From positions 1,400 through 65,399 of the forward strand of contig JBMZDK010000001.1 in the NCBI GenBank assembly GCA_049614265.1: a stretch of DNA of 64,000 bases. Direction: 5' to 3'. Shown here piece by piece: positions 23,000-28,437 of this stretch (position 1 is the first letter of the stretch; each line of letters begins with the position of its first letter). Below the pieces are notes generated by a model. That model saw only the letters and a program-made list of their open reading frames with translations. It did not search any database and was not told the DNA's origin. This DNA is from Thiolinea sp. (GTDB lineage: Bacteria; Pseudomonadota; Gammaproteobacteria; Thiotrichales; Thiotrichaceae). The translations under genes and the position numbers were made by a program.

Positions 23000-23491
23000 C
23001 TAATCTTCCAATGCCTCAAACTTCAGATCTTCATAATTTTTTCGCACCTTACCGGCCTCAAACACCTCGCCATTAATAACAATATACACACCAGCAGGCA
23101 AGCATTGCACAGCCGTCAACGCACACCCCAGATTAAATAAACCATCTGAATCCTTCATGATAAAGGGAATCATCGCGCCAGTAAGCACGACCGTCTTTTC
23201 CAGATTTGCAGCAGCCAGTAAAGCGGCGGTTTCCACCATGGTATCGGTGCCATGGGTAATCACAATACGTTGTTCGGCATTAACACGACAGGCAGCTTCA
23301 AGTGCCTCCCGGTCTTCAGCTGTCATATCCAGGCTATCTTTCAGCAAAACCTGTTGCACAACTACTTCAGCAGTACAGCGCCCCTGTAATAAAGCTGCCT
23401 CAATATGACTGTCGGCAAAATCCAGATCACCATTTGATGCATTGTAATGTTTATCAATCGTTCCGCCAGCCAATAATAATCTGATGCTCAT
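23000..23491 (-). CDS. Short single-domain L-asparaginase/glutaminase-like protein
   Basis: AGGTIDK and ITHGTDTM (both catalytic Thr motifs), VLTGAMIP. Only 163 aa. Confidence 0.85.
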   Translation of the reverse strand: MSIRLLLAGGTIDKHYNASNGDLDFADSHIEAALLQGRCTAEVVVQQVLLKDSLDMTAEDREALEAACRVNAEQRIVITHGTDTMVETAALLAAANLEKTVVLTGAMIPFIMKDSDGLFNLGCALTAVQCLPAGVYIVINGEVFEAGKVRKNYEDLKFEALED

Positions 23492-23506: not shown

Positions 23507-25300
23507 TTAAAATTTATCAACCTGTTCCGGTATTTTACCACTGGACAGCGGCGGCAGGTGGCACTCGTCAAATACACGATGAGGGCAAGACTGACATTGC
23601 CGATGATCCAGCGCAACAGTGACAATTTTCTTGATTGCTTCCTTCTTCTCCACGAAGAAGTACTGCGCCCCAATATGCTCATCAAAGTGACCACGATGAA
23701 TAAAATTCTCCACCTTTGGCTTTAGCTCGCCAAAGTACAAGCCGCCGCCCTTCTCCTGCAAACGGTCTGACTCCTGCTCCAGCATTTCCGCACCATTAAG
23801 ATCAATAAAGTTCACTCCGGTACCGATAATCAACACATGTTTTATGCCTTCTTTTTCCGTCACCCGGTGCAAATAACTTTGGATGTGGTTCGCCGATCCA
23901 AAGTAAATGGACATATCAATGCGAATAATTTTTAGCTGTGGGCATTCCTGCAAATGGCTGGCAGAGCATTCTTTCACCAAAGTACGCTTGCCACTATCCG
24001 GGTCACGATCCGGTGCCAGGCTCACAATATCCGGGATAGAGGTACGGGCAAGAAAAATCACCAGCGATAGCAGCACACCGAAATAAATCGCAAATTCCAG
24101 CTCCAGAAAGAGCGTGGCGAAAAACGTAGTCAGCAACACGCTGGTTTCAGCACGACTGGTTTCAATGATCTTACGGATATGGTCAAAATTAATCAGGTTG
24201 TAAGCTACCAGTAAAATGATCCCGCCCATAGCAGCAATCGGCAGATAAGCTGTTAATGGCGCCACCAGGAGGATAATCAGCGCCAGAAACACAGCAGCGA
24301 AGATTGCCGACAATGGAGTGCGTGCCCCGGCAGAATAGTTCACTCCGGATCGTGTGAATGAACCGGAGCCGGCGTAGCTTGAAAAGAAGCTACCAACAAT
24401 ATTGGATAAGCCCTGACCAAAGAACTCCTGATTACCGTCAATACGCTGATGAGATTTTGAGGCAATCGCCCTGCTAATTGACACCGCTTCTATCAAACCT
24501 AGCAAAGCTACCGCAAAGGCCTGCGGAGCGAGCATTTTGAGTGTTGCCAGTGAAAAGTCCGGTGCTGACAAAGGTGGCAGTGTTGCCGGGATTTCACCGA
24601 CAAACTGTATATTCACTGCTTCGCCGCCAAGCAAGACCGCACAACCACTGCCCACAATCAATGCAAACAACATATTAGGCAAGCGAGGTGCGAATTTTTT
24701 TATAAGCAATGCACTGGCCAGAGTCACCAGCGCCACGGTGAGAATAAAAACATTAGTTACCGGTAGCTGATGAAATATATCAAGCCAGGTATGAAGAAAA
24801 GATTCGCCACGCGGAATTTCAACACCAAGAATATTTTTGATCTGGCTGGTTGCGATCAGTATCGCTGCCCCCGCAGTAAAGCCAATCACTACCGTATGTG
24901 AAACGAAATTCACCAGGACGCCCAGCCGGGCCAACGCAAAAGCCAGCTGATAAACGCCTGCCAGAAAAGTGATGGTTAACGCGGTACTGATAAACTCCGG
25001 TGACTCCGGCGCAAAGCCATGGGAACTCACGGTAGAAAAAATCACAATCGAGATAGCAGTGGTTGGCCCGGAAATCAGATGCCAGGATGAACCAAACAAC
25101 GCTGCAATGATTGGCGTCACCATCGCTGTATATAGCCCGTATTGCGGTGGCAAACCAGCAATTGTGGCAAAGGCCACTCCCTGCGGCAACACAATGACAG
25201 CACCGGTTAAACCGGCCATCACATCTGCTTTCAGTGATTCACGGGTGATACCCGGCAACCAGAGAGTAAAAGGAAATAAAAACTGCAGCAGTGTATTCAT
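23507..25300 (-). CDS. SulP/SLC26 anion transporter with STAS domain
   Basis: ADVMAGLTGAVIVLPQGVAFATIAGLPPQYGLY, SGPT, NQEFFGQG, GSFTRS, C-terminal STAS (DMSIYFGS, FIDLNGAEML). Confidence 0.95.
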   Translation of the reverse strand: MNTLLQFLFPFTLWLPGITRESLKADVMAGLTGAVIVLPQGVAFATIAGLPPQYGLYTAMVTPIIAALFGSSWHLISGPTTAISIVIFSTVSSHGFAPESPEFISTALTITFLAGVYQLAFALARLGVLVNFVSHTVVIGFTAGAAILIATSQIKNILGVEIPRGESFLHTWLDIFHQLPVTNVFILTVALVTLASALLIKKFAPRLPNMLFALIVGSGCAVLLGGEAVNIQFVGEIPATLPPLSAPDFSLATLKMLAPQAFAVALLGLIEAVSISRAIASKSHQRIDGNQEFFGQGLSNIVGSFFSSYAGSGSFTRSGVNYSAGARTPLSAIFAAVFLALIILLVAPLTAYLPIAAMGGIILLVAYNLINFDHIRKIIETSRAETSVLLTTFFATLFLELEFAIYFGVLLSLVIFLARTSIPDIVSLAPDRDPDSGKRTLVKECSASHLQECPQLKIIRIDMSIYFGSANHIQSYLHRVTEKEGIKHVLIIGTGVNFIDLNGAEMLEQESDRLQEKGGGLYFGELKPKVENFIHRGHFDEHIGAQYFFVEKKEAIKKIVTVALDHRQCQSCPHRVFDECHLPPLSSGKIPEQVDKF

Positions 25301-25500
25301 GCGCGCTAAACTCGCGTTAAATTAGCCGGGTGCGGCTTTGCATCCTCATCAAGAGGCTCGGAATTAAAGGCGCATTAGTCTACGCTCATTAGCTTTTTAA
25401 AAAAGCAAAACCTGCGCAAAATCACACCGTTTATCAAAAAACCTGCTATTCGCTATCTCCAACTGCATAGGTAAGATAGGACGCTACCTAAAAAGTGGCA

Positions 25501-25528
25501 TTGACGGCTTGTTCCGGCGTTATATAGT
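25501..25528 (+). promoter_or_regulatory. Candidate sigma70 promoter TTGACG-N16-TATAGT for the rhodanese-MBL gene
   Basis: Near-consensus boxes about 95 bp upstream of ATG 25623. Confidence 0.5.
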
Positions 25529-25622
25529 GCTGTTAAATCAGCTCATATTACTTTGTCAGTAGTGCAGCAACAGCTTCCGGATTATAAGTCCACCAGCCAA
25601 TGAAGCAGAGGTTATAAAACTC

Positions 25623-27050
25623 ATGAAAACTTTCGCGCCTGCATTTATGCCATCCACAATTACAGCGCTTCTTTTCAGCACCCTCCTCACGCTTCCGGCA
25701 TGGCTGGCAGCAGAAGAAAAAGCCACAACAGATAGCCAACAGGAAACAACGCAGCAAGGTGCAGAAGAACCTGACGAACGTTTTATACCTGCCCTGACTG
25801 CACATGCCAAAGCAGCACTGGATCAGGTCAACCAGCGCATCAACAATATTGATACGACAGAATTGCAAACTTTGCTGGCTGAGCACCCGGAAACTCAACT
25901 GATTGACGTTCGCTCAGCACAGGAAATTACGGTGCTGGGTGGCCATATTGATGCTCCCCGCCATCGTAATATTATGCGGGGCTGGCTGGAAGTTCAGGTT
26001 GACGGCCTGATTCCGGATAAGGACACACCCATTGTTGTTTACTGCGGAGTGAACCAACGCAGCCCCTTTGCAGCAGATACGCTGATGAAGCTGGGCTATC
26101 GCAATGTAAAGAACTATGCAGATGGTTTTTTTGCCTGGAAAGATGCCGGTTTACCCGTTGAATACACAGATAAAGCCCTGGATTCATTCCTATATAGCAA
26201 GCCGGTTGAAGTCATACCCGGTGTTTGGTCAGCAATCGGTGCGACCGCTCCGGGCACGTACGATAACTCCGGCCATAATAACAACCTGTCTTTTATCATT
26301 ACGGGTGAAGGTGTTGTAGTGATGAATGCCGGGGATAATTACCTGCTCGCCAAAGCCCTGCATGATGAAATTAAACAACGCACTGATCAACCGGTAAAAT
26401 ATGTACTGCTGGAGAATGGACAAGGCCACGCTATGCTTGGCAGCAATTACTGGCAGGAACAAGGGGCAAAAGTCATCATCCATCAGGACGCCTGGCATGA
26501 AGTGGAAGAACGTGGTCATGAAATCATTGAGCGTATGCGGCGGCGCAACCGTGACAAAGCCTATCGCACCGAAATTGTGAAGCCTGACATTATTCTGGCA
26601 GAAGACAGGATGGATCTCAGCCTCGGTGACTGGAAAATTGAAGCCCGTTTGCTTGGCCCCGCACATAGTCCCGGTGATATTATGATGTGGCTACCTGAGA
26701 AAAAACTGGCAATTACCGGTGACCTTGCTTTCCATCAACGCCTGTTACCGGTGTTTGAGGAAACAGATACAGCAGCCTGGCTGGAAACATGGGAAGCATT
26801 CGTAGCGCTGGAACCGGAGTACATTATCCCCGGCCATGGCGAAGCAACGAATATTGCCGAAGTCACACAATATACCAAAGATTATCTGGTCGATATGCGT
26901 ACGCAAATTGGCGGTATTATCGACCAGGGCAGCACATTGCAGGATGCTTATGAACAGGTTGATTCCTCAGCCTGGTCACACCTGGATACCTATGATGAAT
27001 TGGCACTACGGAATATCGGCATGATATTCCGTGCGATGGAATTTGAGTGA
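25623..27050 (+). CDS. Exported rhodanese + metallo-beta-lactamase-fold (SoxH-like) fusion protein
   Basis: Signal peptide; rhodanese domain LIDVR...VVYCGVNQRS...NYADGFFAW; MBL domain NNNLSFII, GPAHSPGD, ITGDL, IIPGHG. Confidence 0.85.
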   Translation: MKTFAPAFMPSTITALLFSTLLTLPAWLAAEEKATTDSQQETTQQGAEEPDERFIPALTAHAKAALDQVNQRINNIDTTELQTLLAEHPETQLIDVRSAQEITVLGGHIDAPRHRNIMRGWLEVQVDGLIPDKDTPIVVYCGVNQRSPFAADTLMKLGYRNVKNYADGFFAWKDAGLPVEYTDKALDSFLYSKPVEVIPGVWSAIGATAPGTYDNSGHNNNLSFIITGEGVVVMNAGDNYLLAKALHDEIKQRTDQPVKYVLLENGQGHAMLGSNYWQEQGAKVIIHQDAWHEVEERGHEIIERMRRRNRDKAYRTEIVKPDIILAEDRMDLSLGDWKIEARLLGPAHSPGDIMMWLPEKKLAITGDLAFHQRLLPVFEETDTAAWLETWEAFVALEPEYIIPGHGEATNIAEVTQYTKDYLVDMRTQIGGIIDQGSTLQDAYEQVDSSAWSHLDTYDELALRNIGMIFRAMEFE

Positions 27051-27066
27051 CAGTTTAATTTATAAC

Positions 27067-28242
27067 TTAAACCGCAGCCAATCGATTCAGCGCCTGCTCC
27101 AACACCTGCATACTGGTGGCAAAAGATAAACGGATGTGCCCGTCCAAACCAAAAGCAGAACCGGGCACCAGCGCCACACCAACGCTGTCCAGCAAATGAC
27201 TGGCCAGCTCAGTATCATTTTCCAGTCCGAGCCGCCTGATCATGCCATCCACATTAGGGAAGCTATAAAAAGTACCGTCCGCTGGCAGACAACGTACACC
27301 ATCAATCTGATTCAGACGTGCATACACATAATCATGGCGCTCCTGATACGCTTCCAGCATTGGCTGGATACAGGATTGATCACCATTTAATGCTTCCGTC
27401 GCCGCAGCCTGTGAAATCGAACAGGGGTTGGAAGTACTCTGCGACTGTATTTTTTTCATCGCCGCAATCAGCTCTGCAGGCCCACCGGCATAACCCAACC
27501 GCCATCCAGTCATCGCATAGGCTTTAGAGACGCCATTCAGCACAATTGTACGGTCGAATAAATCGGGGCAGGCATTCACAATATTCACAAACTCCGCCCC
27601 GGAAAACATAATATGCTCATACATATCATCGGTGGCGATAATAATTTGTGGGTGCCTGCGTAAGACAGCACCTAACAGACGCAACTCATCAGCGCTATAT
27701 GCTGCACCGGTTGGATTCGACGGGCTATTAATCACAAACAAACGGGTCTGCGGGGTGATTGCTGCCTCTAATTTCTCAGGCGTTAACTTAAAATGATCAT
27801 CCTGAGTGGTATTCACAATCACAGGTGTAGCATCGGCCAACTTAACCATATCGGGATAAGAAACCCAGTATGGGGCCGGTATGATCACCTCATCACCAGC
27901 CTGCAGCAGCGCCTGGCAAAGATTATAAAAGCTTTGTTTTCCACCACAGGAAGCCAGAATTTGTTCCGGGGTGTAATCCAGCTGATTTTCACGACTGAAT
28001 TTAGAAATAATGGCCTGTTTCAGCTCAGTAGTACCATCAACAGCGGTGTAACCGGTCTGTCCGGCGTCCATCGCTTTTATTGCAGCAACACGAATATGCT
28101 CCGGGGTGTGAAAATCCGGCTCTCCGGTTCCTAAACCAATAATATCGCGCCCCTCTGCCCGCAATTTTGCCGCAAGTGCAGAAACTGCCAGTGTAGGAGA
28201 GGGTTTAACGCGTCCAATGCGCTCAGCTAGTTGAATAGTCAC
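27067..28242 (-). CDS. aspC: Class I PLP-dependent aminotransferase (aspartate aminotransferase type)
   Basis: GEPDF, PYWVSY, NSPSNPTG, DDMYEH, NGVSKAYAMTGWRLGY. Probable GTG start at 28242 (the ORF track starts at 28260). Confidence 0.9.
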   Translation of the reverse strand: MTIQLAERIGRVKPSPTLAVSALAAKLRAEGRDIIGLGTGEPDFHTPEHIRVAAIKAMDAGQTGYTAVDGTTELKQAIISKFSRENQLDYTPEQILASCGGKQSFYNLCQALLQAGDEVIIPAPYWVSYPDMVKLADATPVIVNTTQDDHFKLTPEKLEAAITPQTRLFVINSPSNPTGAAYSADELRLLGAVLRRHPQIIIATDDMYEHIMFSGAEFVNIVNACPDLFDRTIVLNGVSKAYAMTGWRLGYAGGPAELIAAMKKIQSQSTSNPCSISQAAATEALNGDQSCIQPMLEAYQERHDYVYARLNQIDGVRCLPADGTFYSFPNVDGMIRRLGLENDTELASHLLDSVGVALVPGSAFGLDGHIRLSFATSMQVLEQALNRLAAV

Positions 28243-28437
28243 TGTTTTTTGGCCTTTCATTCATGTTGGATAACAGTTTGTACCGAAACCGGCTCTTTCC
28301 GCTAAGATAACAGAGATTCCGCCACGGAACAGCACAGATAAGGGGATATATAACACCGCTACGGATATTTTGTGTGTCAACTTTAACGCTCCCACTGATA
28401 CCGATAGAATGTGATTATCTAATGACGGAGCTTCCCC

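Follow-up and report, generated by a model that had tools for sequence, protein, structure and literature searches.

The window analysed in this work is a stretch of 64,000 nucleotides from Thiolinea sp. (GenBank assembly GCA_049614265.1, contig JBMZDK010000001.1, positions 1,400 to 65,399 of the forward strand), and positions below are counted from its first letter. At 25623..27050 on the plus strand it carries a gene (P0001; stop codon included) for a protein of 475 aa, in which a rhodanese domain is followed by a metallo-beta-lactamase (MBL)-fold domain, as seen from open reading frame (ORF) translation, Pfam, NCBIfam and an AlphaFold2 model. A gene for a SulP/STAS anion transporter of 597 aa (P0002, 23507..25300, minus strand; Pfam and NCBIfam) is read away from it, and a divergent intergenic region of 322 bp (25301..25622) separates the two. 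A first-pass annotation, made by a model from the letters and a list of ORFs, had described the protein as an uncharacterised periplasmic fusion with a degenerate metal site and had proposed a sulfane-sulfur or thiosulfate relay coupled to the transporter; all of its elements were found at the positions it gave. The fusion-gene neighbours in the window are the SulP, aminotransferase and UvrB genes.

The features of the fusion protein are all encoded on the plus strand. The N-terminus (residues 1-29, 25623..25709) reads as a Sec signal peptide, with MK, a hydrophobic stretch of ~20 residues and LAA before EE, and its predicted local distance difference test (pLDDT) score in the AlphaFold2 model is <50. 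In 20 out of 20 aligned homologues (set A1) the N-terminus is hydrophobic and is followed by a variable linker; the linker of the window protein (residues 30-57, 25710..25793) is acidic, rich in Thr and Gln, of low complexity, poorly conserved and gapped in the alignment, and also low in pLDDT. We infer that the fusion protein is exported via this signal peptide, in agreement with the earlier annotation. The rhodanese domain (residues ~58-182, 25794..26168) matches Pfam Rhodanese (PF00581) over residues 79-174 with 53 bits (cut-off 22.2; E 5e-14). Translation and homologue alignment place its active-site loop C141-G-V-N-Q-R146-S147 (CX4RS) at 26043..26063, and the Cys141 codon begins at 26043 (YCGVNQRS), where an active-loop Cys had already been noticed. 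Among PDB sequences the domain matches 6mxv (E 7e-23), 1yt8 and the Sud protein 1qxn (E 1.6e-11), and the window CX4RS loop was aligned to the CGGGFRS loops of 6mxv. Both the fold and the six-residue CX4R(S/T) loop of rhodanese-type sulfurtransferases are therefore present. For conservation we used the 120 closest homologues, all of which have both domains (>6000 database clusters match overall). R146 and S147 are kept in 120/120 of them; Cys141 is kept in 106/120, with Ser in eight and Asp in six.

The SoxH-type MBL-fold domain (residues 183-475, 26169..27047) matches Pfam Lactamase_B (PF00753) over residues 273-405 with 40 bits (cut-off 22.7). The AlphaFold2 model, built from a 68-sequence alignment, has a mean pLDDT of 92.3 and a predicted template modelling score (pTM) of 0.85 and is confident from residue 58 on. 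In the model the rhodanese alpha/beta domain packs on the MBL sandwich in a fixed domain arrangement, and the sandwich carries a long helix (residues 288-313) and a helical C-terminal extension. The top Foldseek matches in the PDB are an uncharacterised MBL of Burkholderia cenocepacia (8d2z) and chlorothalonil dehalogenase (6uxu), together with the mono-zinc B2 lactamases CphA and Sfh-I and alkylsulfatases.

The metal site of this domain departs from the usual MBL pattern in its first motif. The replacement of HxHxDH by ENGQGH (residues 264-269) reported in the first-pass annotation is correct and covers bases 26412..26429, and it is followed by AHSPGD (residues 347-352, 26661..26678), GDLAFHQR (26718..26741, GDL being residues 366-368) and PGHG (residues 403-406, 26829..26840). 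A GHNNN motif (residues 217-221, 26271..26285), which is a signature of the SoxH clade and occurs also in the SoxH of Paracoccus, precedes them. The register was taken from an ungapped HMMER alignment of an MBL-only homologue (P0126, 57% identical) with CphA, anchored on both sides by PV..V and G.N.YW. It equates N265, Q267 and H269 with MBL positions 116, 118 and 120, H348 with 196, D367 with 221 (Cys221 in CphA) and H405 with 263. The earlier annotation implied E, G, G and H at positions 116, 118, 120 and 121, a shift of one residue; at the three canonical positions the residues are Asn, Gln and His. H218, N219, E264, N265, Q267, H269, H348, D367, R373 and H405 are identical in 120/120 homologues, and D352 is kept in 116/120. 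R373 and H405 are invariant also in the divergent set A2, and divergent subclades (33-40% identity) have lost the rhodanese Cys and retained every MBL-site residue. Since the site residues are invariant in 120/120 homologues and are found in Paracoccus SoxH, ENGQGH is to be regarded as a SoxH hallmark and not as decay. A decayed pseudo-site is ruled out by this invariance, and the site once called degenerate is better described as remodelled and selected.

What such a site may bind can be read from the same register. In subclass B2 the single zinc is held by D120, C221 and H263; the counterpart here is His-Asp-His, and the other site keeps H348 with Asn and Gln. From these two features a remodelled mononuclear His-Asp-His site is probably the most economical reading, so that the mono-metal centre suggested earlier is plausible on this alignment-based, B2-type register. 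Asn116 and the mono-metal logic of positions 120, 221 and 263 are common to the B2 lactamases CphA and Sfh-I and the window protein, and these enzymes are among its nearest matches in sequence as well as in fold. The two differ in that H118 is replaced by Gln, D120 by His and C221 by Asp, and in that the window domain has the long helical insertion at 288-313 and the C-terminal helical extension. Membership of the B2 lactamase subclass was rejected, as the domain scores 52.3 bits against a cut-off of 240 and only N116, H196 and H263 are kept.

The closest named relatives are the SoxH proteins of Paracoccus. Over 293 aa the window MBL domain shares 53% of its residues (E 2e-107) with the product of L112:13941-14879 on pFER4 of Paracoccus ferrooxidans, the last gene (soxH position) of the P. 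ferrooxidans soxXYZABCDEFGH cluster; the match on a P. pantotrophus replicon is at 53.4% identity. By tblastn against plasmid and chromid records, MBL-only relatives of 53% identity were found in P. pantotrophus, P. versutus, P. denitrificans and P. ferrooxidans. The P. ferrooxidans cluster starts with YeeE (soxT), a regulator, thioredoxin, CcdA, a second thioredoxin and soxX, Y, Z, A, B and C, and ends after soxC with two c-type cytochromes, a flavoprotein, an MBL and a second MBL. Downstream of soxH lie a gene for a 194-aa sulfurtransferase, weakly similar to the window rhodanese domain (E 3e-8), and a second YeeE gene. Paracoccus SoxH and the window protein have the motifs GHNNNLSF, VINENGQGHAMLG, GPAHSPGD, GDIAFHER, PGHG and a C-terminal MEFE in common, and the SoxH signature set (GHNNN, ENxQxH, AHxPGD, GD, PGHG, MEFE) is complete in both. 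Because of the 53% identity to the eponymous SoxH with the same motifs, the MBL part is, as judged from sequence, a true SoxH domain and the protein a rhodanese-SoxH fusion. They resemble each other also in coming from a Sox-containing host. They differ in layout: Paracoccus SoxH has 312 aa in one domain, and the sulfurtransferase is encoded by a gene of its own beside it, while the window protein has 475 aa with an N-terminal rhodanese; Paracoccus soxH is in the sox cluster, whereas the window gene lies away from sox genes. As a side observation, the MBL at the soxG position of P. ferrooxidans (L112:13030-13941) starts with a twin-arginine leader and its motif, HGHPDH, is canonical, so that the Paracoccus sox cluster pairs a canonical MBL with the non-canonical one of SoxH, resembling the two MBLs of a Thiothrix triple fusion described below.

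NCBIfam contains no SoxH model; its best match to the window protein, SoxH_rel_PQQ_2 (TIGR04559), scores 148.5 bits (E 2.5e-43), below the cut-off of 280, and a second model linked to pyrroloquinoline quinone (PQQ), SoxH_rel_PQQ_1 (TIGR04558), gives 117.8 bits against a cut-off of 300. The relation to SoxH that the earlier annotation had considered is thus borne out by the best NCBIfam match and by the identity to Paracoccus SoxH, and the protein belongs to a named family and is not uncharacterised as a kind. The SoxH_rel_PQQ relatives have NTGGQDH instead of ENxQxH and no GHNNN, and a quick maximum-likelihood tree made with IQ-TREE places them with MBLs that have the canonical HxHxDH and separates them from the ENxQxH sequences. 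The SoxH family itself is already known, and has had its name since the Paracoccus cluster was described; the window protein is a rhodanese-fused variant of it, and the present analysis contributes ENGQGH as the SoxH hallmark, the register and the link to rhodanese. No description of the SoxH metal site or of a rhodanese-SoxH fusion was found in the literature searched. The invariant register now offers concrete residues and a mono-metal prediction for this family.

Relatives of the fusion protein occur in at least 579 species records, among them Thiothrix, Thiolinea, Cocleimonas, Thiobacillus, Thioalkalivibrio, Chromatiaceae, Granulosicoccaceae, Hyphomicrobiales and others, and fusions of this kind number in the thousands in public databases, where they have generic names and automatic annotation only. 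We examined the neighbourhood of the gene in 80 species-level loci; the ORF clustering was our own, it yielded antisense shadow ORFs at high-GC loci, and the counts were redone with tblastn. No universal neighbour was found across these loci. A soxA, soxB or soxY gene lies within 8 kb in 12/80, and in 10 of these 12 sox-linked loci, from several families, the fusion gene sits inside a soxXYZAB(CD) cluster. It is within or at the edge of such a cluster in L064, L076, L078, L079, L081, L086, L089 and L090, directly beside soxB in L060, L076 and L086, and flanked by YeeE (PF04143) genes in L076, L079, L081 and L090. Ruegeria and Paracoccus sp. SMMA_5 have an MBL gene, SoxH and a convergent YeeE gene. 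A YeeE/SoxT-type protein, not SulP, is the recurrent membrane-protein neighbour of SoxH genes. Thioredoxin-like genes are often adjacent, including a common thioredoxin-HEAT gene at 15 loci of the Thiobacillus group, which were counted as one lineage. In some gammaproteobacterial sox clusters a second MBL was considered as a relative (L079:4325-5305); it is AidB-like and unrelated to the fusion protein, and it may correspond to SoxG.

Co-occurrence was counted in 400 genomes drawn evenly from the class, with a family threshold of E<=1e-60; the tally takes in one unpublished genome (G318, SoxY-positive and family-negative), and the conclusion is unaffected by it. The family is present in 23/400 genomes, nine times fused to rhodanese and 14 times as MBL-only protein. 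SoxY is found in 21/23 family-carrying genomes vs 168/377 non-carriers (odds ratio 13, Fisher p 1.2e-5, relatedness of the genomes ignored). The genome of the window itself has SoxB, SoxY and DsrA, all on other contigs. Linkage to sulfur oxidation, which the first-pass annotation had expected, is supported by this co-occurrence and by the embedding in sox clusters of relatives. The same counts bear on a different explanation, in which the protein is a hydrolase for a non-Sox substrate (a lactam, a lactone, a sulfate ester or an organohalide) and the association with sulfur oxidisers is ecological only. The closest folds, namely the Burkholderia MBL, chlorothalonil dehalogenase, B2 lactamases and alkylsulfatases, would suit such a hydrolase, and most loci have no sulfur genes nearby. 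We consider it quite unlikely, given that the gene is found inside sox operons in several families and at the eponymous soxH position in Paracoccus, that it is fused to rhodanese, that SoxY co-occurrence is strong, and that the score for the lactamase family is far below the cut-off (52.3 bits vs 240).

Other fusions point in the direction of sulfur transfer. Triple-fusion genes for proteins of 755-785 aa are found in Thiothrix lacustris (755 aa) and Ca. T. namsaraevi, with L013:7089-9404 (T. lacustris) and L015:3271-5628 as the loci; in these proteins a canonical SHYHADH MBL precedes rhodanese and a SoxH domain of the ENxQxH type. The canonical MBL scores as SoxH_rel_PQQ, and the gene is flanked by soxXYZA on one side and by DsrE-like and DUF4395 genes on the other. 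Fusion to rhodanese is common, with 9/23 members of the family in the class sample, and together with the triple fusion of Thiothrix and the rhodanese neighbour in Paracoccus it is Rosetta-stone evidence that SoxH cooperates with a sulfurtransferase. The domain has also been joined to other partners: in P0124, a protein of 599 aa from a metagenome, a YghX/dienelactone-hydrolase-like domain is fused to a SoxH domain.

The triple fusion can also be read in favour of a non-catalytic role, in which the SoxH domain would be a binding or docking module for thiosulfate, sulfite or SoxYZ that offers the substrate to partner enzymes, and the rhodanese a second anion-binding module. Three canonical MBL ligands (H116, H118 and D120) are replaced, 12% of close homologues and a divergent subclade do without the rhodanese Cys, catalysis in Thiothrix could come from the canonical HYHADH MBL to which the unit is fused, and Paracoccus pairs SoxH with SoxG, whose HGHPDH is canonical. 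We nevertheless hold a pure binding module to be unlikely: nine polar residues around the predicted site that are invariant in 120/120 homologues, with three His and one Asp at ligand positions, form a typical metal or catalytic pattern, and catalysis at mono-metal MBL sites is known from the B2 enzymes and from chlorothalonil dehalogenase.

We therefore favour, with a probability of about 0.55, the reading that the window protein is an exported fusion of a catalytic-type rhodanese with SoxH, and that it assists Sox-type sulfur oxidation in the periplasm as an accessory protein. In this scheme the rhodanese Cys141 would accept or pass on sulfane sulfur as a persulfide, with thiosulfate, polysulfide or SoxY-persulfide as the possible source. 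The SoxH domain would bind or cleave an anionic sulfur adduct at the probably mononuclear H269/D367/H405 site, which would be flanked by N265, Q267, H348, H218 and R373, the last being a candidate anion clamp. Its substrate might be a SoxYZ-bound persulfide or S-thiosulfonate, or else a small polythionate. The export of the protein, its metal content, its substrate and its reaction are all predicted.

Several observations weigh against the proposed accessory role in Sox-type oxidation. The window fusion gene is not adjacent to any sox gene, 68/80 species-level loci have no sox gene nearby, and 20 gammaproteobacterial loci, evenly drawn from the 400-genome sample, had neither sox nor rhodanese nor YeeE genes as neighbours. 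In that sample 47% of the genomes have SoxY, which is thus common, and the co-occurrence statistic ignores phylogenetic relatedness. The metal ligands were assigned by sequence alignment alone. Cys141 is absent in 14/120 close homologues (12%), and because Ser or Asp takes its place there, the family as a whole cannot depend on a persulfide relay. Published papers call the function of SoxH unknown, and there is no biochemical function on record. Disruption of Paracoccus soxH, in work of Rother and colleagues from 2001, reportedly caused no thiosulfate phenotype.

A bolder form of the accessory role concerns the release of sulfur from the carrier. In Campylobacterota it has been proposed, speculatively, that SoxH releases sulfate or thiosulfate from SoxY (PMC10045233, PMC11237559), and it has been noted that there is no explanation of how SoxY lets go of its sulfane sulfur towards SoxT importers (PMC11582611). 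Tentatively, and with a good deal of doubt, we propose that SoxH may be a mononuclear His-Asp-His metalloenzyme which, with a dedicated rhodanese (fused in the window protein, encoded next to soxH in Paracoccus), strips sulfane sulfur or thiosulfonate off SoxYZ and delivers it to sulfur globules or to YeeE/SoxT-type importers, as the release step of truncated Sox pathways. If true, this would fill a gap in how SoxY-bound sulfane sulfur leaves its carrier in organisms without SoxCD, and it would give SoxH a function.

A parallel to the proposed mechanism is found in the quinoprotein 'relay' set, which consists of a rhodanese-like CXXCW protein, a SoxYZ-like carrier and a SoxH-like MBL (PMC12997753). 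The corresponding models are TIGR03865, TIGR04557 and TIGR04558/9, and PP_2666, PP_2677 and PP_2678 of Pseudomonas putida are examples. The PQQ trio combines the same three kinds of exported part that we invoke for the window protein, and Q118, H120, H196, D221 and H263 are common to both. The set differs in being linked to PQQ dehydrogenases and not to sox genes, in its NTGGQDH motif and in forming a separate clade in the quick tree. At G000:C186:3909-5380, on another contig of the genome of the window, a 270-aa ORF that contains SoxY, possibly a SoxYZ fusion, adjoins a 321-aa SoxH-like MBL of 23% identity, and this pair looks like a set of the PQQ 'relay' type.

Among stand-alone rhodaneses, Sud of Wolinella (1qxn) is a periplasmic polysulfide-sulfur transferase; it is likewise exported, as a single rhodanese with a CX4R-type loop, and unlike the window protein it stands alone. 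The persulfide dioxygenase (PDO)-rhodanese fusions (CstB, BpPRF 5ve3, 3tp9) are like the window protein in having MBL and rhodanese in one chain with a role, predicted for the window protein, in sulfane-sulfur chemistry; they differ in their reversed domain order, in their cytoplasmic location and in having the canonical HxHxDH, whose first His binds Fe. The SoxL-type proteins of purple sulfur bacteria are presumably, like Sud, stand-alone exported rhodaneses with a CX4R-type loop.

The likeness to these dioxygenase fusions raises the question of whether the window protein is their periplasmic analogue, with an Fe(II) 2-His-1-Asp centre that oxidises a persulfide, on Cys141 or on a thiol carrier, to sulfite with O2. 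Candidates for a His-Asp-His centre are available (H348 or H269, D367, H405), CstB and PRF have an architecture reminiscent of this one, and there are matches of the rhodanese part to 3tp9 and 5ve3. The chemistry is very unlikely all the same. Asn265 occupies position 116, where the first, Fe-binding His of HxHxDH would be expected; the MBL domain has no sequence match to a PDO structure at E <=0.01; neither the Pfam nor the NCBIfam matches include a PDO family; the protein is apparently exported; and the family occurs in denitrifying Thiobacillus and in a metagenome-assembled genome labelled Deltaproteobacteria. Membership of the PDO family was rejected on the same Asn and on the finding that 3tp9 and 5ve3 match the rhodanese part only. 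The first-pass annotation was thus right in setting the protein apart from the cytoplasmic PDO-rhodanese fusions.

With the accessory role in Sox-type sulfur oxidation as the preferred reading, the divergent SulP gene can be considered. Its product scores 330.9 bits with PF00916, 55.3 bits with PF01740 (STAS) and 407.4 bits with TIGR00815 (cut-off 380.45), and is below the DauA and BicA cut-offs. The earlier annotation had named conservation of the SulP neighbourhood as a check, and this check was run. A SulP orthologue (73-88% identity) is present in 13/15 genus genomes searched and is adjacent to the fusion gene in none of them; only one of these 13 genomes (G015) is known to carry the fusion as well, with the two genes 292 kb apart on one contig. 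The fusion itself occurs in only 4/19 genomes of the genus, the genome of the window included. In G003 (locus L099) uvrB abuts sulP directly, so that the fusion gene and the aspartate aminotransferase gene next to it (27067-28260, minus strand) form an indel block relative to G003. The conserved downstream partner of SulP is a gene for a 163-aa protein (23000..23491, minus strand) that resembles the N-terminus of asparaginase (PF00710, E 1.7e-28); it adjoins SulP in 8/12 genus relatives and lies outside the SoxH unit.

A functional coupling of the fusion protein to SulP, with a relay feeding the transporter or fed by it, is highly improbable on these data. The divergent arrangement with a common 322-bp intergenic region speaks in its favour, as does a 64%-identical SulP located 4.5 kb from a fusion orthologue of another genus (L095). 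SulP is near the gene at ~4/104 other loci vs ~1.3 expected by a rough estimate, a weak excess at best, and the SulPs within ~2 kb of the gene in L051/L131, L074 and L118 are unrelated ones from different subfamilies (28-32% identity). The counts in the genus, the indel block and the asparaginase-like partner all argue against coupling, which was rejected as a conserved feature. SulP adjacency is positional and SulP is not part of the SoxH unit. Of the sulfane-sulfur relay coupled to an anion transporter, as first proposed, the link to sulfur oxidation is supported and the coupling to SulP is not.

A few minor features of the locus were recorded as well. In the divergent intergenic region there are a sigma-70-like site at 25501-25528 on the plus strand (TTGACG-16-TATAGT) and a GAGG ribosome-binding site ~11 nt before the fusion ATG, both of which are consensus matches only. 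An Rfam search of 25301..25622 gave zero matches, and a search of the region for an operator-like inverted repeat gave nothing notable. A span of 17 kb in genome G020 contains the genes for the aminotransferase, the fusion protein and SulP, which points to a loose synteny of the region and to repeated loss. The 163-aa asparaginase-like protein matches only the N-terminal domain of asparaginases, and a RidA gene is often next to it. The cytoplasmic SulP tail after the STAS domain (residues ~568-580, ~23561-23599 of the window, minus strand) contains a Cys-rich motif, CQSCPHRVFDEC; it is conserved in the 64%-identical orthologue of another genus, where it reads CSQCEVKIFSEC, and may be a metal or redox sensor. 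A second, partial SulP gene was found at a contig end of the same genome (G000:C349:2-712); it is 87% identical over residues 1-237 and could come from strain heterogeneity or duplication.

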